A DNA stretch of 64,000 bases from a virus. Lineage: Duplodnaviria; Caudoviricetes. The notes under the pieces are model-generated. The model was not told the DNA's origin. It saw only the letters and a program-made list of their open reading frames with translations, and searched no databases. Shown one piece after another: positions 14,014 through 64,000 of this stretch. The stretch is taken from positions 32,888-96,887 of IMG/VR virus record IMGVR_UViG_3300033076_000897; one strand, written 5' to 3'. Each line of letters opens with the position of its first letter. Within the stretch, counting starts at the first letter, position 1. A program made the translations under genes and the position numbers.

Positions 14014-15525
14014 TTATTGTCCTTGACCTACTCCACCACCTTGCTGAGCACTTAGATCTTTCACATCGTATACGTATGATGGTGATCCTAAATATATCGC
14101 CATTGGTAAAGCCATCAATGATAGTTTTTCTGGATATATGGTAGTGTTACTTCCTGAAGAACTATACGAAGATTCTTCGATAGCATCCATAGATAACACA
14201 TCATAATTGGATCCTGGAGAAATAGCGTCTATGGCTTTTAAAAGATCACCTGGATCTGATACAGCTTGCGCTCCTTGTGCTCCTGGAGTACCAGTATAAT
14301 CACCTCTAAGTGATGGATCAAAATCAGAACCGTATCCGGTAGGAGGTCTAAAATAATCTATACCCATTGAACTATCAAAGTCACCATTAACTAGATTAGA
14401 TGTTCCACTTGCTCCAACTAATAAACTTCCAGGTACGTTAGTAGGTACATATATTGGCGTAGAACTACTTTGAGTTCTCCATGAATTAGTTTGTCCGAAT
14501 AAAAGATACCAGCCGGACCATCTTGTGCCAGTTTTACCCCTACCATAATATTTGTAACTAATCACACCCGGAATAGAATAAGCATATTCACCAGTATTAA
14601 TTGCAAAGAAATCAGTAGTAATATCTGTGGGATTTACAAAAACTATAGATCCTATTGGATAAATTCCTCCGATTTCATAAGGATATGACCATATAGCGTT
14701 ACCATTGCTATTATTGCATTGTAAAATTTTACCAGGTGCACTAGTAGTAGATTGTGGATTCAATCTTATTGTTCCGTTCAATGTTGTAGTTTTACCGCTT
14801 GCCCCAATAGTATTATTGCCCAATAAAGATGAATTACCATTGTTTGTTAAAGTGGAAGCTGTGTTTAAAACTACATCAGATCCGATAAAATTTACGTCAC
14901 TAACAATTTCAGTATTAGCATCAGTAATCTTGATTCTAGTTACACCATTTTTATCAGTCAATCTAATCTCTTCAGACTGAATTTCTGCGATGTTTTCGGT
15001 ACCAATAGCGATCAACTTAAAGTGAACTCCACCTGCATTTGGTGAAAGTCTAAAAGCAAAGCTAGAATCACTGTAATCAACACCATCGAATAGTCTTAAT
15101 CTGATCATGTCAGAAAAATCAGCTCCACCGTTACCGTTTACAATAGAAATTAAAGCATCTTTATCGATTGCGTCGGGACTATAAGTCGTGTCGTCCATAC
15201 CAACAATAATATTAGTTGGTTTTAAACCTGCACCTGAACCTATAGGATTGATTTTTGGTAGAACAGAATTGGCAAAACCACCAGAAGCTGCATCAAGTTC
15301 CCAATAACCACTAGAACCTTGATCTCCTTTTGCACCTGTGTCACCTTTGTCTCCTTTCGGCCCAGTTGCTCCAACAGAACCGATCGATCCCGTAGAACCC
15401 TTTTCACCTTTTAAACCTTGAGGTCCACCACCGTTAGCAAGAACCTGATCAAAGTTGTAATTGATCTTATCCTGCGTAACTTGCAGGTTGTCAGATTGGA
15501 ATATTTCTTTGATGTTAATCGACAT
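14014..15525 (-). CDS. Tail fibre-like protein with short Lys-rich collagen (Gly-X-Y) segment
   Basis: KINYNF N-terminal motif; GPQGLKGEKGSTGSIGSVGATGPKGDKGDTGAKGDQGSSG; YPIGSI collar-like motif. Confidence 0.75.
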   Translation of the reverse strand: MSINIKEIFQSDNLQVTQDKINYNFDQVLANGGGPQGLKGEKGSTGSIGSVGATGPKGDKGDTGAKGDQGSSGYWELDAASGGFANSVLPKINPIGSGAGLKPTNIIVGMDDTTYSPDAIDKDALISIVNGNGGADFSDMIRLRLFDGVDYSDSSFAFRLSPNAGGVHFKLIAIGTENIAEIQSEEIRLTDKNGVTRIKITDANTEIVSDVNFIGSDVVLNTASTLTNNGNSSLLGNNTIGASGKTTTLNGTIRLNPQSTTSAPGKILQCNNSNGNAIWSYPYEIGGIYPIGSIVFVNPTDITTDFFAINTGEYAYSIPGVISYKYYGRGKTGTRWSGWYLLFGQTNSWRTQSSSTPIYVPTNVPGSLLVGASGTSNLVNGDFDSSMGIDYFRPPTGYGSDFDPSLRGDYTGTPGAQGAQAVSDPGDLLKAIDAISPGSNYDVLSMDAIEESSYSSSGSNTTIYPEKLSLMALPMAIYLGSPSYVYDVKDLSAQQGGGVGQGQ

Positions 15526-32814: not shown

Positions 32815-34116
32815 TTAGTGTTGTTCTATTTTTTTACTTTGTACGATTTCTGTTTCTACAAAGCTGGCTTTGTGTGTGAATCTACCCTCTCTAAAGATTC
32901 CGCCCTGCATTTGACCCTCGAAATAGGTATCTATTCCAAAAACGTAACAGTTTTCCAAGTGAGTGGATTCAGAAACATAGCAAGATTGTACTTTACTTTC
33001 TTTAATGTCTGTTCCCTGAAAAAGAGCGCACATTCTAATATCAGAACCTTCGATGTCGCAACCGTAAAAGTCACTGCTAAATACAGATCCTCTAATTTTA
33101 CAATCTACGAATTCGTAAACTTCTAATTCAAAACACATTTTCATGAAGGCGTCTTTAATTTGGACCCTTCCAGCATCAGTATCGTAATTGATTCTACCGC
33201 CTTCGATGCCACCGTGTGTAAAGAGTTTGATCACTCTTTCTCTAATTTGAGGCCAATACATATCGATTTTGACTGGGCTATCGCTCATATCGATTGTAAG
33301 TCTAATATCACCGTCAACTGGGAAAAGAACTCTCCAGTCTTTTCTACCATCGATGACTTTTTTATTGGCTTCAAGAATTCTCTTAAGCTCTAGTTTATTA
33401 TTGGCTGTGAAAGATGGATTTTCTGTTGCGTTCCACATTTGCAGCAAGAACACATCGGTCAAGTGCAAAATATCAGTTGTTCTATCCTCGTAATCTTTAC
33501 CTCCCAAATATCTAAATTCCAAATAACCTTTTTCAGCTTTCGAGAAGTTGATGCCGTAGTATTTCGACATCGGATACTCAAAATTCATTGAAGAGATGGT
33601 GTTGCCATCAAAGAAATAGTTTTCTGATCTTGGTAAGATCCATTTGATAGACTTAGCGTAAACTGAGTTTTCTCTGTGTGGGAAGAATTTATAAACCTGA
33701 TTTTCGTTGAAGTCAAGAATAAACTTCAAAACGTTCATCTTTTTGATACGGTATGGATCACCAGTTTTCTTGGTGTCAAACGAACAGTTAACGTGAATAG
33801 CTGATCTTTCTGTCGTGTAGCCGTGCTCTTTGATATAGGCCAAAACTTTGATCAAAACCATTCTAGCATCTTGGTACGGCAAGGCACCAGTAACCAGCTC
33901 CAACATGTTCTTACCACCTGACATGTCAGGTTCAACCTTAAACTTTTTATCGGTTGGTTGAAAATCACTGTGGGCTTTGGTACCCACATAAATATCACGA
34001 CCTAGAAGAGATTTCAGTTGACTAACTGCCTCTTCTAGGTCGTAATTAGAAAAGAACTCAAATTCAAACCCGATTAGAGCGTTGAAAAGAATGTCCTTGT
34101 TGTGTACGTTTAACAT
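32815..34116 (-). CDS. Putative amidoligase (COOH-NH2 ligase superfamily) with C-terminal beta-helix-like repeats
   Basis: IGFEFEF, EPDMSG, ELVT, TTERSAIHVNCS, KYYGINF and YLEFR motifs. Confidence 0.75.
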   Translation of the reverse strand: MLNVHNKDILFNALIGFEFEFFSNYDLEEAVSQLKSLLGRDIYVGTKAHSDFQPTDKKFKVEPDMSGGKNMLELVTGALPYQDARMVLIKVLAYIKEHGYTTERSAIHVNCSFDTKKTGDPYRIKKMNVLKFILDFNENQVYKFFPHRENSVYAKSIKWILPRSENYFFDGNTISSMNFEYPMSKYYGINFSKAEKGYLEFRYLGGKDYEDRTTDILHLTDVFLLQMWNATENPSFTANNKLELKRILEANKKVIDGRKDWRVLFPVDGDIRLTIDMSDSPVKIDMYWPQIRERVIKLFTHGGIEGGRINYDTDAGRVQIKDAFMKMCFELEVYEFVDCKIRGSVFSSDFYGCDIEGSDIRMCALFQGTDIKESKVQSCYVSESTHLENCYVFGIDTYFEGQMQGGIFREGRFTHKASFVETEIVQSKKIEQH

Positions 34117-50866: not shown

Positions 50867-51820
50867 TTACTTTTTTACTTCAAACCTTTCAGGATCTAAC
50901 TCCAAGGTCTTTTTGATCATGTAATCAGAATAGTTCTTCAACTTGTCTGAAGTAGCTTGATCAACTCCTCGACCGTAGAAATCCTTAAAGATTTGTTGGT
51001 ACAACTGAACAGTACTGTCGAATGGCACACCAGGTTGAGCGTTAGATTCGATAACATAGAGCTTCCCGTTCTTGTCCTCCATCACATCGAAAGTGATGTA
51101 AGGTAAATCCTTGAACATGTCACAGTACTTCTTAATAAGCTCATTGTATTTGGGAGCTAATTTAGCTGGATCCCTTAAAATGTATTTGAACATCATTTGT
51201 TCGTCACCCTTGCCATCACCAGATTTGGCTTTTCCGTTCATCGGAATTCTTTCCATCCAGTACATTGGTTGACCGTTAAAATTGATGATCCTGTGTTCGG
51301 ACTTTTTGTCCACGTATTGGCTATATAAATCCAAAGCCTCATGATCGGCTTTATCAAAATCTTTCTGATTTTTGAAGATCTGAATACCCAAACCGCTATG
51401 GCCACCCTTAGGCTTAGCGATCATAGGGAATCCGATCTTTTTCACAGCCTCATCCTTCGAGTAAACTGTCAGGGGAATGTTTTCGTCCCCGTCTACGATC
51501 TTGTGAAATTCGACTTTGGATCCTGATTGTTTGATAAACTCAGGCTTGTTGTAAACGTTTTCCAGTTTAATTAAGCCCTTGTCCAAAAGAACCTTTGTTA
51601 CTTTGCTGTTGTAATTCAACACTGGGTAATTAGGGTTGATGTCCATCTTCTTGTAGTTATCAAGTGTGATTTGTACAAAGAAGTTGTCGCCAGCAAAGTC
51701 CTTATAAGACCACCATCTGTGACCGCTCTTTGGATCGATCGCCAAATAGACTTTATACAAATCCTTTGGATCGTTCTCCTTTTTTTCGTTCAGAAATTCT
51801 TGTAGTCTTAAAAGCTTCAT
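50867..51820 (-). CDS. ATP-grasp (RimK/D-Ala-ligase-like) peptide ligase
   Basis: GFPMIAKPKGGHSGLGI, SEHRI, FDVM and YVIESNAQPG motifs. True start is probably MKLLRLQEFLNE (51820), directly after GATATATA. Confidence 0.8.
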   Translation of the reverse strand: MKLLRLQEFLNEKKENDPKDLYKVYLAIDPKSGHRWWSYKDFAGDNFFVQITLDNYKKMDINPNYPVLNYNSKVTKVLLDKGLIKLENVYNKPEFIKQSGSKVEFHKIVDGDENIPLTVYSKDEAVKKIGFPMIAKPKGGHSGLGIQIFKNQKDFDKADHEALDLYSQYVDKKSEHRIINFNGQPMYWMERIPMNGKAKSGDGKGDEQMMFKYILRDPAKLAPKYNELIKKYCDMFKDLPYITFDVMEDKNGKLYVIESNAQPGVPFDSTVQLYQQIFKDFYGRGVDQATSDKLKNYSDYMIKKTLELDPERFEVKK

Positions 51821-51830
51821 ACGGTATATA

Positions 51831-52280
51831 TCAGGCTTGTAAAAAGGCCAATACTTTTTCCCAGTTTTCGAAACCAGGTTGTCCAAAGTGGATATGAGTT
51901 CCTTTGAATTCTCCTGCACCGTTTTTAGTACGGTCATCGATCAAGAAGTCTCCCATCAGTAAGTCTTTACGGTGACTTAAGATCAATCGTTTGTGAGCCA
52001 ACTTACCCAAGTGCTTTTGAACCCAACGACGCTTAGAAGACCAAGAGGTCGGGTTGCTCCATGGAGCAGTACTTAAGAAGAAGATCTCGTACTTTTCGTT
52101 TAATCTCTTAACAGCTTCAATAGAGCCTTCGATCGGATCAGGATCCTCAAACAACTCTTTGTCGACTGAAGTCAACATACCCAATTTTTCGATAGCTTTT
52201 GGACCGTGACGACGGACCGCATGAGCTTCAAGATCTACCATAACTCCGTCAAGGTCGATGTATACAATTTGTTTTTCCAT
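51831..52280 (-). CDS. 5'(3')-deoxyribonucleotidase (HAD, NT5C family)
   Basis: YIDLDGV, LSTAPW, KDLLMGDFLIDD. Confidence 0.88.
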   Translation of the reverse strand: MEKQIVYIDLDGVMVDLEAHAVRRHGPKAIEKLGMLTSVDKELFEDPDPIEGSIEAVKRLNEKYEIFFLSTAPWSNPTSWSSKRRWVQKHLGKLAHKRLILSHRKDLLMGDFLIDDRTKNGAGEFKGTHIHFGQPGFENWEKVLAFLQA

Positions 52281-55668: not shown

Positions 55669-55916
55669 AGCTCTTGGTATTTTTGTTTAACTTTCATAAG
55701 TTCTTTGCATTTTTCGTAGGCTTCTTGTTGCTCGTACCTTGCCAACAACATGTCTACCATGTGAATGACTTCTTCGGGTTTTGCATCGGCCCTAATCTCT
55801 CCGTTGATCAGACCTTTATAAACCATTTCAGCCATTTTTGCCGCGATCATCTCCTCTACTTCTTTAGGTAGAGAAAAACCAAATCCAGATCCATTTTCTT
55901 CCAAATCAAATAGCAT
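55659..55916 (-). CDS. Small protein with C-terminal UVR-like YEKC motif
   Basis: [13 protein letters not shown]. Confidence 0.6.
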
Positions 55917-56706
55917 TTTTTATCTCCTTTATAAGTTTAATTTGTTGCTCGTTCAAAATAGGATAGTTTGCATTGATCTTACACATTAGGGCTCCTCTCA
56001 TTCCGTTTCTCGATGGCATGCCTTTGTCCTTGATTCTTAAAACTTTTCCTGGTCTTGACCCTTCAGGAATCTTAATATTTAACTTTCCGTCTGGATGATC
56101 TATCATACAATCACAACCCATCATAACGTCCCACCAATCTGCAAATATGTCGACCCAAATATCCAATCCATTCACAACAAAATGAGAATCAGGTAAGACC
56201 TGAATATTGATGATCACATCACCTCTTGGTGCAGAATGGTTGTATGGATTGCTTTGACCTTGACCAGCTACTCGTAAAGAAGCTCCATTAGAAACACCAG
56301 CTGGAATGCTAACTATAAATTCTCCAGCACCAAGATCTATATTTTTTCGACAACCTCTGTAACTCTCTTCGAAAGTTAGTGTCATTTGAACTCTAACATC
56401 TGGACCCTTAGCATTTGGATTTCTTCGGTTACCAAACATTTGTTCAAATATGTCAGAAAAGTTACCACTATCGTTCCATGTTCTAAAAAAGTTTGGATCA
56501 GAGAATGGATCCCTTCGTTTAGCATCGTAAGCTTGTCTCGAGTTTTCGTTGCCCAGGGTTTCATAAGCCAATGCAACCTCTTTAAACTTGTCGTCTTGAC
56601 CAGAATTTCGATCAGGGTGGTATTGAAGAGCTAATTTACGGTAAGCTTTCTTGATCTCTTCTTGAGTGGCATGCTCAGGAACACCTAAAACGTCGTAATA
56701 ACTCAT
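55906..56706 (-). CDS. dnaJ: DnaJ-class (CbpA-like) co-chaperone
   Basis: YYDVLGV...[16 protein letters not shown]-domain plus C-terminal DnaJ domain; no Zn finger. Confidence 0.92.
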
Positions 56707-58044: not shown

Positions 58045-58398
58045 TTACGAGATCTTGATCTTCTTAAATCCCTCTTTGGCTTCCTGAAACTCGATTCTAA
58101 GGATTCCATTCTCCATCGAGGCCTTCACGTTATTTGTGTCTAATGATTCTGGTAAGCTAAAGCTTTTTTCAAAGCTTCGTTTCAATAGACCACCATTTTC
58201 TGTAGAACCAGAAATGTTTAACTGTAGGCCTTTAATCTCGATAGAGACTTCGTCCTTTGAATAACCAGGTAAAGAAACTTCTAATACTCCGTTTTCATAG
58301 ACATAATCTTTGTCTCTTCGTTTAATTGTAGTTGAAGTCCATTTCAAATCGTCCAACTCTTTCAAAAGGTCTGTGTAATCTCTTGTTGTAAAAAACAT
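58045..58398 (-). CDS. Small heat-shock protein (Hsp20)
   Basis: LPGYSKDEV...SFEKSFSLP...ASMENGILRI alpha-crystallin motif. Confidence 0.92.
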   Translation of the reverse strand: MFFTTRDYTDLLKELDDLKWTSTTIKRRDKDYVYENGVLEVSLPGYSKDEVSIEIKGLQLNISGSTENGGLLKRSFEKSFSLPESLDTNNVKASMENGILRIEFQEAKEGFKKIKIS

Positions 58399-58491: not shown

Positions 58492-59235
58492 TTAAAATGG
58501 TGGTTCATCGATAATATTCATGCCACTTAGTCTTAAAAGTAAGTTTGCTGTGGCTTCAATGTCCTTTTCACAGTATGTTTTGATCTCTTCGATTCGACCC
58601 TGCCAAAAGTAACGATTCACTTCTGGGCCTGCCATCAAATCTTTAGGAGTAGGCACATCGAACAATTCAGCCAAAAGACCAAGCTTCGCTGAGTTCCAGC
58701 CACCAAACTTCCAAACCTCGTACGTGTCGATCAAACAAGTTTCCCATGGTTTTTGTTTGTGCAACCAGAATTGATGAGGTACTTTTAAGCCATGGATCAA
58801 TGCTCTTTTAACAATGAATGGCAAATCAAAGCCTTTGACATTGTGACCAACCCATTGCATCTTAGGATAGTTGTTGAATATTCTGGCAGCCATAGTCAAA
58901 AACTCTTCAATGACAGCTTTTTCACTCTCACCATAAAAGCTTTTCTTACCAAAAGCCACAGCTTCACCAGATTCGTTGAACTTAATTTGTCCAATAGAGA
59001 TACACACGATTCGACCCCATTCTGGATAAAGACCGGCCATACGAGGATACATCTCGTGATCGTCTTTAATGTCTTTAAGTTCGGTTGGATTCTGTTCTCT
59101 ACACTGCATTGACTTGTATTGCCAATACTCTAATAGGTTAGGGTTTTCCATGATCACTTCGTCGAGTGTCTCCCTTTGGGTTGTGGTTTCTATGTCGATA
59201 AAAACCATTTGCTTTAATTCTTCTAGTCCGTACAT
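58492..59235 (-). CDS. DnaQ/PolB-like 3'-5' exonuclease
   Basis: FIDIET (ExoI), GHNVKGFDLPF (ExoII), YCEKD (ExoIII); start MYGLE at 59235. Confidence 0.88.
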   Translation of the reverse strand: MYGLEELKQMVFIDIETTTQRETLDEVIMENPNLLEYWQYKSMQCREQNPTELKDIKDDHEMYPRMAGLYPEWGRIVCISIGQIKFNESGEAVAFGKKSFYGESEKAVIEEFLTMAARIFNNYPKMQWVGHNVKGFDLPFIVKRALIHGLKVPHQFWLHKQKPWETCLIDTYEVWKFGGWNSAKLGLLAELFDVPTPKDLMAGPEVNRYFWQGRIEEIKTYCEKDIEATANLLLRLSGMNIIDEPPF

Positions 59236-59253
59236 ACCTTTAAATTTTACACT

Positions 59254-59281
59254 AAAAAAGCCAGTGAAGGTCACTGGCTTT
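59254..59281 (-). terminator. Intrinsic terminator
   Basis: AAAGCCAGTGA-CCT-TCACTGGCTTTTTT on the minus strand. Confidence 0.75.
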
Positions 59282-59451: not shown

Positions 59452-59688
59452 TTAGTGGTTGAATTCATCGAAATCCCATTCTCTGTGATTTCTAAGTAGA
59501 TCGTATTGATCGTAAGTTAATGTTACCAAAACATAACCCCCGGTAACTGAAGGGGGACAGGCGGCCTCACTAAACCAATAAGGAGGTGCTTCTGTAATTC
59601 TTTCGTGTAGAAAGTCAAACAGTTGATCAATGTTCATGTGGTGGATCCAGACACTGATCGCGAAACACTTCATATTAGCTTCACCCAT
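59452..59688 (-). CDS. Hypothetical protein
   Basis: Start MGEAN after GATAGATA. Confidence 0.5.
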   Translation of the reverse strand: MGEANMKCFAISVWIHHMNIDQLFDFLHERITEAPPYWFSEAACPPSVTGGYVLVTLTYDQYDLLRNHREWDFDEFNH

Positions 59689-59698
59689 AGTATATCTA

Positions 59699-60142
59699 TC
59701 AATGAAATTTATACTCGTATGGCTCGATGTGGGCTTGATCAACTTCCTGCTTCACTTGATTCCAATTTCCTTGGTAGTGGCTAGCCACAAACATGTGATT
59801 GTCAATAACCACATAGTTGCCACCTCGAGGTTTGTTCATAAGCAATCCGTGATACTTAAAACCGTGTTGCTTGAGCCAGTTCTCGGTCACTGTTCTGTGT
59901 TCTTCGGTTCTGGCAGTAAAGAAGGTGATGATGTGACCTTGATCGTACCATTCGTTGATGGTCTCAGAAGCCCCTTCTAATTTATCGGCGATGCTCATTC
60001 TCCAAGCTTCCTCGTTTGGAATGTCTTCTGAGATGGTACCGTCAATGTCGATCAAAAAGTTCTTGATACCGTTGTTTAAAACTGGACTAACTCTGTTTCC
60101 GTTGGAATCGCCAGCAAATTCCATATCTGCTAATTCTGTCAT
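59699..60142 (-). CDS. Small HAD-superfamily phosphatase
   Basis: LIDIDGT (DxDxT), FFTAR, KPRGG and IDN; ATGA-coupled to the upstream GT25-PLOD gene. Confidence 0.8.
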   Translation of the reverse strand: MTELADMEFAGDSNGNRVSPVLNNGIKNFLIDIDGTISEDIPNEEAWRMSIADKLEGASETINEWYDQGHIITFFTARTEEHRTVTENWLKQHGFKYHGLLMNKPRGGNYVVIDNHMFVASHYQGNWNQVKQEVDQAHIEPYEYKFH

Positions 60143-61446
60143 TTTTGTGGTCTAATAAAAGAAACTATAATGTATCTAACTCCGTTGTGGATTGGACGTG
60201 CACCGTGTTTGTGTGAAATGGCTCCAGGATGTAAGAAAGCGTTACCGTTTCTTTTTGGAGTTACACAAACACCGTATCTTGGGAAATATGTTCCACCACC
60301 CTCAAACTCGTCATTCAATTTTACACCGCACGTAAAGTAGCTGTGGTCGTGGTGCAGAGACAAGTGTCCTTGTTTGTCCATACTGTATCTGATCATGAAA
60401 TCTTCAGAATAAGGATTGCTTAACCATGCACCTTCAAGTTGCCAAATGTGTTTTGCTAATGGTGTAACTATTTCTCTGATCACTCTATTGTAAATGTCAC
60501 CTAGTCCCAATTCGTTCAATAAAACATCGTTCGTTGGATAGAACTCGTGACGGCCCTCTGTCCACATGTTCTTGGTTTCTGCCAATGCTATCACATCGTC
60601 ACAGAACTTTTGAGTGAACAATGGAAACTCAAAGATGTTACTGAATCTAGGCCCAATCTCGTCTACTAATAGATCGTATTCTCCTCGGGCAATGATCTTG
60701 TCAATGTACTTGGCTTTCCATGCATTCCAATCAGAAGCATCTAAGACTTCGAAGTAAGTTTGCGTGTTCATATTTTCGGTTGTTGTAGATGGACGTACGT
60801 CCACTGGAATTTGACGAACGTATTGTTCTTTTGTTGCAAAGGCATTCATTGTTGGTTGAAATCTCTGCAACACGTCAAAACGAGGGTGAGCTACGTAAGT
60901 TGCTGATAAAAACTCGTCAGCCGGAATCACTGCTTCGTTAAGACCGTATCTAACGATCTTTTTAATGCCACTAAAACTAAGCATGTAAGCGTGTGTATTG
61001 TAGCTGTAACTTGGTTTATAGAATGCTCCATCAACCGATTCATTTACGTTAGGATCAACTTTGTTTCTACCTAAGTAAACCAAGTCCCATTCGGCATTAG
61101 GGAATTTGAAATCCTTTAAAGAAATGGTTGGTTGAAAATCTTCTTCTAAGACTAAAATGGTTTCGTAACCCTTTACGTAAGCATCATGCCACACTTTAAT
61201 GTGAGAAAGTGTACAACCTATTTCTCCGGGTGTGAGGTCTCTGTTCCACCAATTGTTTAAACTTTCTGATTTCCAATCAAAGAGCTTATAAGAACCAAAG
61301 GATCTCAAAGACTCTGGGTTTTTACCATCAACAGCATCCATAATCAGATACGGTGTGTTGTCAGGCAAACCTAATTGATTGATGCGATTAACGATGTCCT
61401 GTGTATCGGACTTTAAGTTGATTACGTATACTTGATCTATTTTCAT
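60139..61446 (-). CDS. Fusion of GT25 (procollagen galactosyltransferase/COLGALT-like) and PLOD-like lysyl hydroxylase (2OG-Fe(II) dioxygenase)
   Basis: N-terminal: VYVINL, DAVDG, RDLTPGEIGCTLSH, LVLEED, WDLVYLGR, YSYNTHAYMLS, IPADEFL. C-terminal: FPLFT..FCD, YPTND, FMIRY, LHHDHS (HxD), FEGGGT, HPGAISH.HG..., RYIIVSF. Start MKID (61446) overlaps the GT4 stop. Confidence 0.88.
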   Translation of the reverse strand: MKIDQVYVINLKSDTQDIVNRINQLGLPDNTPYLIMDAVDGKNPESLRSFGSYKLFDWKSESLNNWWNRDLTPGEIGCTLSHIKVWHDAYVKGYETILVLEEDFQPTISLKDFKFPNAEWDLVYLGRNKVDPNVNESVDGAFYKPSYSYNTHAYMLSFSGIKKIVRYGLNEAVIPADEFLSATYVAHPRFDVLQRFQPTMNAFATKEQYVRQIPVDVRPSTTTENMNTQTYFEVLDASDWNAWKAKYIDKIIARGEYDLLVDEIGPRFSNIFEFPLFTQKFCDDVIALAETKNMWTEGRHEFYPTNDVLLNELGLGDIYNRVIREIVTPLAKHIWQLEGAWLSNPYSEDFMIRYSMDKQGHLSLHHDHSYFTCGVKLNDEFEGGGTYFPRYGVCVTPKRNGNAFLHPGAISHKHGARPIHNGVRYIIVSFIRPQK

Positions 61447-62450
61447 GACATGATTAGATTGTTCCATTCTGCAGCTCTCATTCTCCAGGTTTGACATTTG
61501 GCCCAGTTTCTGGCTCGCTCTGAATAGTTGGAAACCATTTCAGGCATGTGTCTGAGGTTGGCTACTATATTTATATAAGCTTGTAAGTGATTTGTTTCGT
61601 GGTTAACTGTAAACCCTCTACTACCTACAGTTTCCTTTAATGCTGCTAAATCAGAACATATAGGGATCACGCCCGACATCTGCATCTCTAAAGCTGTGAT
61701 GCAATAAGTTTCTTTATATTCAGTTGGATAAAGCCAAAACTGGCTCTCTGCCATGTGTCTGTGTAAGGTTAATTGATCAACCGATCCGTAATAGTATACG
61801 CCTTCCATTTTGATCCTCTTTTCAGAAGCGTAGGATGGTGAAAAGACTTTTAATTTGGCGTTAGGCCAAAACGATCTGATTTTCGGCCACATTTCCAGAA
61901 CTCTACTAAGACCTCGTTCATGAGCTGAAGAGTAGATGAAAGAGTTTTTGTCTTTAGTTCTTTTAGTAAACGTAGAAGGATCTATGCCGTTGCCTATAAC
62001 ATGAATTGGTTTGGTGACCTTAAATCTCGTTTGAAAATCCTGTTTGTGCCACTCAGTTAGACAGATTATGCCAGTGAGTTTATCGCGGTTTAACAGATCT
62101 TGGTGGTTTTCTATAGCTTCACCTTTCCACCAAACAAAGTAGTCTTCGTTGTGAACCCAAAAGTAAGATCTAGTGAAAGTGATCCTTCGTTCTTCTAGTT
62201 CTAATAAGTAGTGAATGTAACTTGAAGCTATGACTACGTCGAAATGTTGATCCGAAATTGAAGCATTCCATTCCACGCCTTCGTGTACTTCGTCCAGGAC
62301 TTGGCCACTTACTTGGACATCGTGTCCAAGTTTAGCTAGTTGTTTAGCTAAATTGGCACAAGCCTGTTCAGTTCCACCCAGACCTAATTCAGAAACGGTA
62401 GAACCGTTATATGGTTTGCTTTGGTATCCGACGTAGATCAGAATCTTCAT
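61443..62450 (-). CDS. GT-B (GT4-like) glycosyltransferase
   Basis: LGGTEQA, IGNGID, YSSAHERGL, YPTEYKETYCITALEMQ and AALKET; start MKILIY (62450) by TAATG overlap. Confidence 0.88.
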   Translation of the reverse strand: MKILIYVGYQSKPYNGSTVSELGLGGTEQACANLAKQLAKLGHDVQVSGQVLDEVHEGVEWNASISDQHFDVVIASSYIHYLLELEERRITFTRSYFWVHNEDYFVWWKGEAIENHQDLLNRDKLTGIICLTEWHKQDFQTRFKVTKPIHVIGNGIDPSTFTKRTKDKNSFIYSSAHERGLSRVLEMWPKIRSFWPNAKLKVFSPSYASEKRIKMEGVYYYGSVDQLTLHRHMAESQFWLYPTEYKETYCITALEMQMSGVIPICSDLAALKETVGSRGFTVNHETNHLQAYINIVANLRHMPEMVSNYSERARNWAKCQTWRMRAAEWNNLIMS

Positions 62451-63037
62451 TAACGATAGTGTTGACCTCCAACCCAAAGTACGAAAGAACGACGAGTTCC
62501 TTTAGTTACCTTAGTAACTCTGTGCATCATGTAGCTTGGGAAAATAAAGGTAACGCCAGCACCTCGAGGAGAAACTTGTACCGATTGACCTCCTTGCCAC
62601 ATTTCTAAATCTCCGCCTTCATATTCGTCGGACTCAGACAATTGAACCGTAATTGATACCTTACGTTTAGATGCGTTACCGTGCCCAATATCCTGATGCC
62701 AATCATAATGACCTTCTGTTGTATCGTAATATTCTGTATATTGAATGGACTCGTCAGCTGAGATCAAATCAAATTTCCATAGAGCGTCATTGGCTTCTTT
62801 GGCCATTTGCATCATCTTTTCGTATAGCCATGTCCATTGAGGAGTCTTTGGAATCCATTTGATAGATGAACTTCTAACCTGTTTAATAGCTTCAGGATCA
62901 GCGTTACCAATGACTGTTGCTTCTTGAAATGGAATAGTTTGAACGTCTTTGTAGATCTTGGTCAATTCTTCGGCTGAAAAACCGTTTTTGAACCAGTAGT
63001 AATTTTGGGGATCGTTTGTTTCTGCTTGAAATAACAT
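62450..63037 (-). CDS. 2OG-Fe(II) dioxygenase, prolyl-4-hydroxylase/PKHD-like
   Basis: QYTEY, YDWHQD (HxD), RKVSITVQLS, YEGGDL, FPSYMMHRV and RRSFVLW; start MLFQ at 63037. Confidence 0.88.
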   Translation of the reverse strand: MLFQAETNDPQNYYWFKNGFSAEELTKIYKDVQTIPFQEATVIGNADPEAIKQVRSSSIKWIPKTPQWTWLYEKMMQMAKEANDALWKFDLISADESIQYTEYYDTTEGHYDWHQDIGHGNASKRKVSITVQLSESDEYEGGDLEMWQGGQSVQVSPRGAGVTFIFPSYMMHRVTKVTKGTRRSFVLWVGGQHYR

Positions 63038-63054
63038 GGAATAGTCTTTAAGTG

Positions 63055-63081
63055 TTATATGTATCAACCCTATTTTGTTTA
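63055..63081 (-). promoter_or_regulatory. AAAC-N17-TATAA promoter-like motif heading the hydroxylase/glycosyltransferase cassette
   Basis: TAAAC-AAAATAGGGTTGATACA-TATAAC; also contains a GATACATA late-like variant. Confidence 0.6.
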
Positions 63082-63084
63082 ACG

Positions 63085-63110
63085 AAAAAAGCCCGATTGC
63101 TCGGGCTTTC
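63085..63110 (-). terminator. Intrinsic terminator between the fibre genes and the modification cassette
   Basis: AAAGCCCGA-GCAA-TCGGGCTTTTTT (GNRA loop) on the minus strand. Confidence 0.8.
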
Positions 63111-63130
63111 GTATCTTAAATTAATAACTC

Positions 63131-63451
63131 TTAATTTGTAAATGGAGGATCTAGAATAACTGTGCTTAATTTATCATTAAGTCTGGTTACAAGTCTTGAT
63201 TCTACTTCGTTAACGAAGGTTGTGCCAAGTGTAGATTTTACCCAATTAACAACTTCAACCTTTGTTAAATTACTGAACTGTATGAAGTTATTTGGATCTG
63301 GTTGTGCAAGTGTACAAACACCAGTTTCATCAACTGAGTTATTAGTCGCATCTGATCTTTTACATTCCCATTTAACTTTGTAAACCACGTTAGACAAGTT
63401 ACCGTCCGACGTTTTACATATAAGTTTTATGATATTCCAAGTAGTTGTCAT
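63131..63451 (-). CDS. Small tail-fibre-associated protein
   Basis: MTTTWNI...FIQFSNLTKVEVVNWVK pattern typical of small genes that follow fibre genes. Confidence 0.6.
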   Translation of the reverse strand: MTTTWNIIKLICKTSDGNLSNVVYKVKWECKRSDATNNSVDETGVCTLAQPDPNNFIQFSNLTKVEVVNWVKSTLGTTFVNEVESRLVTRLNDKLSTVILDPPFTN

Positions 63452-63466
63452 ATTCTTAATTATTTT

Positions 63467-64000
63467 TTATCCAAGAAAATCTACACTCATTAAAACTCCA
63501 TCATTAAAGTTTAAATTCCACATAGCTCTTCCGTCACTGACGGTCACACCTCCCCAATATCCACCGAACGTTCCGATGCCGCCACCGCCGCCGTCTTTTC
63601 CTGGAGGGCCCGGAGGGCCTGCGGGACCTTGAGGTCCAGGTCCACCGTTTGAACCAGCAGCACCTTGTGCACCTTGAGGTCCAGGTCCACCGTTTGAACC
63701 AGCAGCACCTTGTGCACCTTGAGGTCCAGGTCCACCGTTTGTTCCGTTAGCACCTTGAGCACCCCTAGGGCCTTGAGCACCGGCAGCACCTTGAGCACCT
63801 GTTGGTCCAGGTCCACCGTTAGAACCATTTGCACCGGCAGCTCCTTGAGCACCAGCAGCTCCTTGAGCACCTTGAGGTCCAGGTCCACCATTAGAACCAT
63901 TTGCACCAGCAGCTCCTTGAGCTCCATTTGTTCCAGCAGCTCCTTGAGCACCTTGAGGTCCAGGTCCACCATTAGAACCATTTGCACCAGCAGCTCCTTG
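63467..64000 (-). CDS. Collagen-like (Gly-X-Y repeat) fibre protein, C-terminal part; 5' end outside the window
   Basis: Hand translation: QGAAGANGSNGGPGPQGAQGAA...GPQGPAGPPGPPGKDGGGGGIGTFGGYWGGVTVSDGRAMWNLNFNDGVLMSVDFLG*; stop at 63467. Confidence 0.92.
   Translation of the reverse strand, partial: QGAAGANGSNGGPGPQGAQGAAGTNGAQGAAGANGSNGGPGPQGAQGAAGAQGAAGANGSNGGPGPTGAQGAAGAQGPRGAQGANGTNGGPGPQGAQGAAGSNGGPGPQGAQGAAGSNGGPGPQGPAGPPGPPGKDGGGGGIGTFGGYWGGVTVSDGRAMWNLNFNDGVLMSVDFLG
63593..64000 (-). repeat. Collagen-coding tandem repeats (GAQGAA / GSNGGPGPQ units)
   Basis: Repeated ccttgagcacc and gaggtccaggtccacc on the + strand. Confidence 0.9.

Follow-up and report, generated by a model that had tools for sequence, protein, structure and literature searches.

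A predicted lysine hydroxylation and glycosylation cassette beside the collagen-like fibre genes of an uncultured tailed phage

The IMG/VR viral contig IMGVR_UViG_3300033076_000897 ends in a collagen-like fibre gene, next to which lies a cassette of enzyme genes whose products appear suited to the hydroxylation and glycosylation of collagen. The stretch analysed here (positions 32,888 to 96,887 of the record, hereafter the window) comprises the last 64 kb of the 96,887-bp contig, whose completeness is estimated by CheckV at 36%. All cassette genes are placed on the minus strand by open reading frame (ORF) calling, as are the other window features for which coordinates are given below. They are arranged in the order collagen gene, DUF7936 gene, Fe(II)/2-oxoglutarate (2OG) oxygenase, GT4 glycosyltransferase (GT), fusion of a GT25 domain with a lysyl hydroxylase (LH) domain, and HAD phosphatase. 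The fibre gene, present as its 3' part (63467..64000) and open at its 5' end where the contig stops, is the proposed substrate; it matches PF01391 with 56.4 bits (cut-off 27.2) and encodes 49 uninterrupted Gly-X-Y triplets followed by a C-terminal non-collagen tail of ~40 residues. The X positions are occupied by Ala, Pro or Gly and the Y positions by Gln, Asn, Ala or Pro. The 106-residue DUF7936 protein (63131..63451; PF25590 74.8 bits, phrog_7802) has a homologue of 76% identity at the same position after the collagen gene in a related locus (L005). The four enzyme genes encode the oxygenase (62450..63037; 195 residues, PF13640 54.2 bits), the GT4 enzyme of GT-B type (61443..62450; 335 residues, PF13439 42.2 bits and PF13692 32.6 bits), the GT25-LH fusion (60139..61446; 435 residues, with phmmer matches of both halves) and the HAD-family phosphatase (59699..60142; 147 residues, PF24694 36.4 bits, phrog_1238), and their junction sequences show them to be joined by the overlaps TAATG, ATGA and ATGA. 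Coordinates, Pfam and PHROG scans and junctions all agree with the gene order and the four overlap-chained genes described in the first-pass annotation of this DNA.

The fusion protein is central to the interpretation of the locus. In phmmer searches against the PDB, residues 242-433 in its C-terminal half (LH domain, residues ~240-435; 60142..60729) match residues 516-715 of human LH3/PLOD3 at E 6.5e-26, and the same half matches the LH domain of mimivirus L230 at E 8.3e-24. The iron triad H365/D367/H414 and the 2OG-binding arginine R424 are invariant in 26 homologues, and the catalytic residues align with the HHD...H...R motifs of LH3. A Pfam OGFOD2-like model reaches 23.6 bits on this half, under its cut-off of 31. 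Judged by homology, the C-terminal half is a PLOD/LH-type lysyl hydroxylase domain, related to its animal counterparts across the whole catalytic double-stranded beta-helix (DSBH).

The N-terminal half (residues 1 to ~210; 60817..61446) matches the GT25 family PF01755 with 64 bits, where the cut-off is 24. Its residues 2-204 align by phmmer with the catalytic C-lobe of human COLGALT1 (E 1.4e-17), as compared to a best E of only 0.5 among bacterial GT25 structures. The AlphaFold2 (AF2) model of this half is good (pLDDT ~90), and Foldseek places COLGALT1 first (E 1.3e-16, 27% identity), with mimivirus R655 (1e-7) and bacterial GT25 (6.6e-7) ranking lower. Sequence and predicted fold thus both assign the half to a GT25 domain nearer to COLGALT1 than to the bacterial GT25 enzymes of lipopolysaccharide (LPS) synthesis, and the GT25 plus PLOD-type fusion that had been proposed from the sequence is borne out by the matches of both halves.

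Functional residues described for GLT25D1 (COLGALT1) were placed on the phmmer alignment to map the putative GT25 active site. In COLGALT1, D522 is the catalytic base, E523 has a proposed role in anchoring the amine of hydroxylysine, D436/D437 form the acidic pair for metal and UDP, and Y494/W495 constitute a 'YW' acceptor clamp, of which the W495A mutant is inactive (PMC12987934). D177 and E178 of the fusion align with D522/E523 and both are invariant in homologues; E102/D103 align with D436/D437, D103 being invariant; and Y149, aligned with Y494, is conserved. The clamp tryptophan is replaced by an asparagine (N150; family consensus SYNTHAY), and given this exchange the specificity for acceptor or sugar may differ from that of COLGALT1.

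The source is an uncultured marine jumbo phage, tailed and loosely T4-like. It encodes a gp6-type baseplate wedge protein (phrog_219), a Rad3-type helicase and a UvsW-like helicase; the helicase is closest to those of an uncultured 462-kb megaphage, the Lak phages and Tenacibaculum phage PTm1, and since the identities are only 31-44%, no cultured relative is near. Megablast of the 4.5-kb region against GenBank phages gave zero matches, and tblastn with the fusion returned no full-length match, its hits being confined to LH-like domains, ~30% identical, of cyanophages and a roseophage. In metagenomes, the fusion family falls into 351 or more clusters when grouped at 90% identity; an exhaustive homologue search with the fusion yielded 3,472 representatives with E <= 1e-3 and, under the stricter limit of E <= 1e-30, 144, one relative (P0001) being 97% identical. 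Scanning of IMG/VR revealed ~27 full-length fusion loci. The order of collagen gene(s), oxygenase, GT4 and fusion is retained in ~25 related viral contigs with fusions of 39-71% identity, and most of the full-length loci show collagen gene(s), oxygenase, GT4, fusion, HAD, X96 (a small conserved gene) and exonuclease in this succession. As to the co-occurrence of cassette and collagen genes across phages, which the first-pass annotation had named as a check, the cassette follows collagen fibre genes in these ~25 contigs. Among 185,579 bacterial and archaeal species genomes, a single full-length fusion was detected by a short-pattern scan known to miss members (the scan was not exhaustive, having missed the protein of Aureibacter tunicatorum considered below); it lies on a 24-kb contig with phage synteny, probably a phage contig, within a Flavobacteriaceae metagenome-assembled genome (MAG).

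Fusions in other genomes are informative regarding the GT4 enzyme, whose assignment to GT4 (GT-B) is confirmed by the two Pfam domains, both above their cut-offs, and by the E-x7-E motif E-T-Y-C-I-T-A-L-E, which is aligned also in the GT4-GT25-LH triple fusion P0125. Comparison of the GT4 with the PDB did not reveal an informative relative. In P0125 and a second triple fusion, P0131, the N-terminal part is 34% identical to the GT4 of the window (E 2e-55 and 2e-58). A GT4-LH fusion is present in Rhodobacteraceae (L088:8957-10627), a Peptidase_C39-GT25-LH fusion (P0128, WP_309939162.1) in the cultured Bacteroidota species Aureibacter tunicatorum, a cellular member accessible to laboratory work, and metagenomes contain GT25-GT_PLOD-LH proteins that combine all three animal-type modules of the lysine pathway in one polypeptide. 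Because homologues of the GT4 occur fused to GT25-LH elsewhere, which is the best evidence on this point, the GT4 probably works together with the fusion protein. The module arrangements further suggest that it takes the place held elsewhere by the GT domain of PLOD. The description of the cassette as animal-style needs qualification: the LH and GT25 modules are homologous to the animal enzymes, but the GT4 is of GT-B type and non-homologous to the glucosyltransferase of LH3, hence analogous to it.

In an unrelated lineage (L016:4725-16802; IMGVR_UViG_3300028131_000823), the fusion is found among genes for a GT2, two Sulfotransfer_2 proteins, a methyltransferase, a GDP-mannose 4,6-dehydratase and a collagen-repeat protein, a neighbourhood suggesting that a collagen-like protein may bear glycans that are sulfated or of greater complexity.

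The last of the overlapping genes is weakly connected to the others. The HAD protein has the fold assignment and motif I (DIDGT) that were expected of it, with weak matches to LNS2, PNKP-type and capsule-biosynthesis HAD proteins, and its gene is tied to the fusion by the ATGA overlap; the two do not, however, co-occur consistently, as L138, L141 and L146 have a HAD but no fusion, and no HAD adjoins the fusion of L013 and L024. Its membership of the pathway is doubtful.

One could suppose that the GT enzymes and the HAD remodel glycans of the host envelope (LPS, capsule or S-layer glycan), as in a block of superinfection, and that they lie next to fibre genes because marine T4-like phages commonly group their glycan genes in the host-recognition region. 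The annotation of GT25 as an LPS-biosynthesis family would agree with this, and yet the domain in question is nearer to COLGALT1 by ~17 orders of magnitude in sequence comparison and by 9 in fold comparison, with invariant residues in the positions of D522/E523. Pelagimyophage glycosyltransferases in host-recognition clusters have been read as O-chain modifiers (PMC7029224), the fusion of the L016 lineage is surrounded by the glycan-related genes listed above, and the HAD matches a 'capsule biosynthesis protein' structure (E 0.0025) as well as phrog_1238; set against these indications is the covalent linkage of the GT25 to a protein lysyl-hydroxylase-type domain that has its catalytic residues intact and no role in glycan synthesis. 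We consider envelope remodelling quite unlikely.

The oxygenase was reannotated with an ATG start at 63037, not the TTG at 63067, on the basis of an alignment with 12 orthologues. Across 13 orthologues, H114-x-D116...H172 and R182 do not vary. Foldseek with the AF2 model (pLDDT 80.7) retrieves PiuC/PKHD first, then a Dictyostelium prolyl hydroxylase (PHD), Pseudomonas PPHD, PHD2 and an algal prolyl 4-hydroxylase (P4H); in sequence searches the best matches are to PKHD/PiuC (E 4e-5 and 1.3e-7), compared to just 0.11 and 0.0056 for a P4H (6IUQ). The enzyme had been called P4H-like, which is correct for the P4Hc-type DSBH fold and the intact ligands, but the enzyme resembles PKHD/PiuC and the HIF-type PHDs no less than collagen or algal P4H. 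The term holds at the superfamily level only, and the enzyme is, as far as sequence and model tell, a generic PKHD/prolyl-hydroxylase-like oxygenase.

A T4-like phage that encodes 2OG oxygenases together with two glycosyltransferases brings to mind DNA hypermodification, in which bases would be hydroxylated and then glycosylated, as in the glucosylation of hydroxymethylcytosine in T-even phages or the formation of base J, and both oxygenases show weak matches to phrog_2297, 'DNA endonuclease'. Neither of them resembles TET/JBP or AlkB, however; protein hydroxylases match best, the GT25 domain matches a protein O-glycosyltransferase, and the genes adjoin fibre genes as opposed to genes of nucleotide metabolism. 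This explanation, which we regard as hardly credible, was rejected on the homology evidence.

The collagen-like proteins encoded beside the cassette in relatives are very large, with ~100-360 triplets and up to 1,414 residues, and several end in a Peptidase_S74 domain, an intramolecular chaperone of the kind that phage fibres typically have. Their lysines are placed at Y in 681 instances and at X in 25. LH acts on the Y position, and what GLT25D1 recognises is hydroxylysine (Hyl)-Gly. In the L016 lineage, which shares no other gene with the window (~20-kb loci compared), only 2 kb separate the fusion from the collagen-repeat protein, which has Lys at Y. A second collagen-repeat protein of the window (14014..15525; 503 residues, in the virion module; PF01391 29.2 bits, Pfam E 2.8e-5) has G-X-K in 5 of the 14 triplets counted, and it is a candidate substrate within the window. 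Pro in the collagen of the window is distributed over Y (8/49) and X (10/49). The first-pass annotation had pointed to Pro at Y, the position used by P4H; this applies to the window collagen and a few relatives, but the collagens beside the cassette in relatives overall have Pro mostly at X (692, against 77 at Y).

A second class of Gly-X-Y protein is encoded upstream of the cassette in several relatives (L009:1-1452, L022:3-1442, L028:3-1709, L030:2-1627, L033:2-2260). It has Thr or Ser at X, Ser, Asn or Asp at Y, and hardly any Lys or Pro, so that these proteins would not be LH substrates; they might be targets of O-glycosylation.

Associations between enzymes and collagens were examined in a wider survey anchored on the neighbouring exonuclease, comprising 33 distinct loci with 10 kb on each side and uncorrected for phylogeny. 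Many distant relatives have collagen genes with the oxygenase alone or without any of the enzymes. Every locus that has the oxygenase also has collagen genes (15/0/4/14 for both, oxygenase only, collagen only and neither; Fisher p = 6e-6), and the fraction of Pro at X is 0.18 where it is present compared to 0.07 (p = 0.002). For fusion-bearing contigs that lack a collagen gene in the first 10 kb, a check of the whole contig located one further upstream. Two LH-only phage contigs, of 13% and 52% completeness, contain no collagen-like ORF.

Collectively, the gene order, the domain identities, the conserved catalytic residues, the synteny and the fusions found elsewhere, from which all catalytic steps are inferred, make it probable in our assessment that the phage modifies its own fibres: lysines would be hydroxylated and glycosylated by the GT25-LH fusion, a further sugar would be added by the GT4, and prolines would be hydroxylated by the PKHD-type oxygenase. 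Long collagen-like Gly-X-Y fibres of the virion would be produced in the host cytoplasm, where, prior to zipping of the triple helix, the PLOD-like Fe(II)/2OG domain would hydroxylate lysines at Y (X-Lys-Gly). The fused COLGALT1-like GT25 domain would then place a hexose on the new hydroxyl group; galactose is our guess by analogy. The GT4 probably adds a further sugar, the role fulfilled in animals and mimivirus by the non-homologous glucosyltransferase of LH3 or R699. The PKHD-type oxygenase probably hydroxylates fibre prolines, which in most relatives would be those at X and not the Y prolines of P4H, and the HAD phosphatase is probably not obligatory.

Several observations weigh against the proposal of fibre modification. 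The visible collagen of the window has no Lys at Y, the target position of LH, in any of its 49 triplets, and the closest orthologues of that collagen have just 5-9%. Within 10 kb, LH and collagen genes are not significantly associated in the survey (8/3/11/11, p = 0.28). Collagens of relatives without LH in their 20-kb loci still show 12-26% Lys at Y, the content being barely higher where LH is present (median 0.151 versus 0.115; p = 0.025, uncorrected for phylogeny), and Lys at Y combined with Asp or Glu at the next X is a general pattern of triple-helix stabilisation. Where LH homologues stand alone in Thiotrichales and Rhodobacteraceae, their genes are situated amid housekeeping genes with no collagen nearby; the GT4-fused homologue of Rhodobacteraceae likewise lies among housekeeping genes. 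The AF2 model of the LH half has pLDDT <50 (residues 338-435); the Asn at the clamp Trp of the GT25 domain departs from COLGALT1; and a terminator-like hairpin is interposed between the collagen gene and the enzyme genes. Lys at Y, weakly higher with LH and common without it, was dropped as strong evidence for discriminating LH-bearing loci. The earlier idea of hydroxylated and glycosylated phage fibres is thus upheld by enzyme homology, synteny and fusions, but neither the visible collagen, for lack of Y-position Lys, nor the Lys-at-Y content of relatives, which does not clearly track LH, lends it strong support.

The hydroxylases might alternatively target other proteins, be it other virion proteins, host translation factors or ribosomal proteins, with the GTs acting there in turn; Pseudomonas PPHD on EF-Tu, and OGFOD1 and Tpa1 on uS12, would be the analogues. 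The nearest structures of the oxygenase, PiuC/PKHD and the EF-Tu prolyl hydroxylase in place of collagen P4H, are consistent with such a function, whereas the lack of any locus with the oxygenase but no collagen genes among the 33 distinct syntenic loci is not readily so. The absence of Lys at Y from the visible window collagen, and a Lys-at-Y content that does not clearly follow LH, likewise conform to it; the best matches of the LH domain, however, are bona fide collagen enzymes, and the full GT25-LH viral contigs checked carry collagen-like ORFs, the two contigs having none being incomplete and LH-only. As to the LH homologues on bacterial chromosomes with no collagen gene in the vicinity, all of the LH-homologue bacterial genomes and MAGs checked carry a collagen-like ORF with Lys at Y. 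In Aliishimia sp. (OY782680.1; L088, L124), for example, the collagen-like ORF (an open frame of 785 residues with repeats of GDK/GAT/GEK type and Lys at 64 of 158 Y positions) lies 1.3 Mb from the GT4-LH gene. The presence of collagen in these bacterial genomes is only suggestive of a link, because collagen matches were obtained also in 4 of 14 reference genomes used as control. We regard the targeting of other proteins as unlikely, and modification of the phage's own fibres as the preferred reading.

An intrinsic-terminator-like hairpin with U-run (63082..63112), absent from the first-pass annotation, is located between the DUF7936 gene and the oxygenase, at the end of the collagen/DUF7936 unit; its RNA fold of -16.2 kcal/mol (z = -4.39) was equalled in stability by 0 of 200 shuffles. 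GATATATA is found in 12 exact copies in the window, every one on the coding strand, compared to 1.9 expected, and GATACATA, a copy with one mismatch (63058..63065), is positioned 3' of the hairpin and 21 nt upstream of the oxygenase ATG. The hairpin with GATACATA downstream of it indicates that the enzyme genes are probably a transcription unit apart from the collagen gene. No Shine-Dalgarno-like sequence is visible before the starts of the DUF7936 and oxygenase genes (window 63020-63500), which, combined with the one relative in a Flavobacteriaceae MAG, provides a weak hint at a Bacteroidota host.

Other genes of the region may be mentioned in brief. X96 (59452-59688), small, conserved and without family match, is always beside the PolB-exonuclease-like gene (58492-59274); it was rejected as a cassette member, as it accompanies the exonuclease clade-wide, including at loci without collagens. 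Just downstream of the cassette lie genes for a DnaJ (J domain and DnaJ_C) and an Hsp20/alpha-crystallin protein (55906-56706 and 58045-58398), which could assist, as chaperones, in the folding of fibres or virion, and beyond them PhoH, RNase HII and UvdE. An ATP-grasp-like protein with phrog_2599 and weak Pfam matches including 'sugar-transfer associated ATP-grasp' (50867-51937) is encoded 8 kb from the cassette in the window phage; homologues are situated inside the cassette, between HAD and X96, in L008:11754-12716, L010:11713-12645, L018:11822-12748 and L032:11029-12030.

Compared to the metazoan pathway of LH/PLOD1-3 and GLT25D1/COLGALT1 (PDB 6FXK, 9EVJ, 8ZGC; PMC11897130, PMC12987934), the phage cassette has in common the homologous DSBH domain of LH with the same Fe and 2OG ligands, the homologous catalytic domain of GT25 with the catalytic Asp and its adjoining Glu, and X-Lys-Gly in Gly-X-Y repeats as the substrate proposed here. 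The two differ in architecture, in that human LH and COLGALT1 form a two-enzyme complex whereas the phage has a single polypeptide, reduced by the GT and accessory domains of PLOD and by the non-catalytic N-lobe of COLGALT1. They differ also in the Trp-to-Asn exchange of the YW clamp and in the second transferase, a non-homologous GT4 (GT-B). The phage system would operate on a phage fibre in the bacterial cytoplasm instead of the endoplasmic reticulum.

The mimivirus system is the closer precedent in being viral. It includes L230 (LH and Hyl glucosyltransferase; PDB 6AX6), R699 (GGT), the GLT25D1-like R655 and 8 collagen-like proteins, and the modification of collagen lysines has been proven biochemically (PMC9546862). 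Both viruses encode collagen-like structural proteins along with LH and GT enzymes, and the relationship extends to individual domains, L230 LH matching the LH half of the fusion and R655 matching the GT25 half in structure. The phage differs in being tailed and infecting bacteria, the host of mimivirus being an amoeba (Acanthamoeba polyphaga), and in having its enzyme genes directly beside the fibre genes. GT25 and LH are joined in one phage protein, whereas in mimivirus the hydroxylysyl glucosyltransferase is combined with LH in L230 and R655 is separate (PMC9546862).

For the oxygenase, the relevant comparison is with PKHD/PiuC (3DKQ, 9QN4), P. putida PPHD (4IW3), PHD2 and the algal and Bacillus P4H (2JIG, 3ITQ), with which it shares the P4Hc-type DSBH and the HxD...H plus Arg ligands at TM-scores (to the query) of 0.6-0.75. 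Nothing ties it specifically to collagen P4H; it is a single domain that lacks the peptide-substrate-binding domain and the PDI partner, and the candidate prolines of relatives are mainly at X. The general principle was anticipated by Iyer et al. 2010, who predicted that prokaryotic 2OG dioxygenases encoded beside collagen-like or tail-collar proteins hydroxylate these, with transferases acting on the hydroxyl group (PMC2938197). The enzymes considered there differ from those described here, belonging to the Asp/Asn beta-hydroxylase and PhyH families and occurring with sulfotransferases, with no phage PLOD or GT25 among them (PMC2938197).

Lastly, the cassette is of interest for the notion that hydroxylysine glycosylation of collagen is a trait of animals and giant viruses, as has been the view hitherto. 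Full-text literature searches did not retrieve a description of an LH/GT25 collagen system in phages. As far as we know, the collagen-like proteins of prokaryotes and phages are usually regarded as devoid of the hydroxylysine glycosylation that is part of animal collagen maturation, and we know of no non-animal system other than mimivirus with biochemical proof. In the phage described here, a single polypeptide encoded beside fibre genes unites homologues of the two lysine-pathway enzymes. That hydroxylysine-linked glycosylation of collagen could occur widely in marine tailed phages and in some bacteria, performed in the cytoplasm by compact modular fusions (GT25-LH, GT4-GT25-LH, GT25-GT_PLOD-LH) that are maybe near the source of metazoan PLOD and COLGALT and that could serve as tools for modified recombinant collagen, is a broader proposal which we consider evenly poised between true and false. 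If true, it would revise the view of how phage fibres are stabilised and shielded, it would have a bearing on how the metazoan collagen machinery arose, and it would offer small enzymes, probably amenable to bacterial expression, for the production of modified recombinant collagen.

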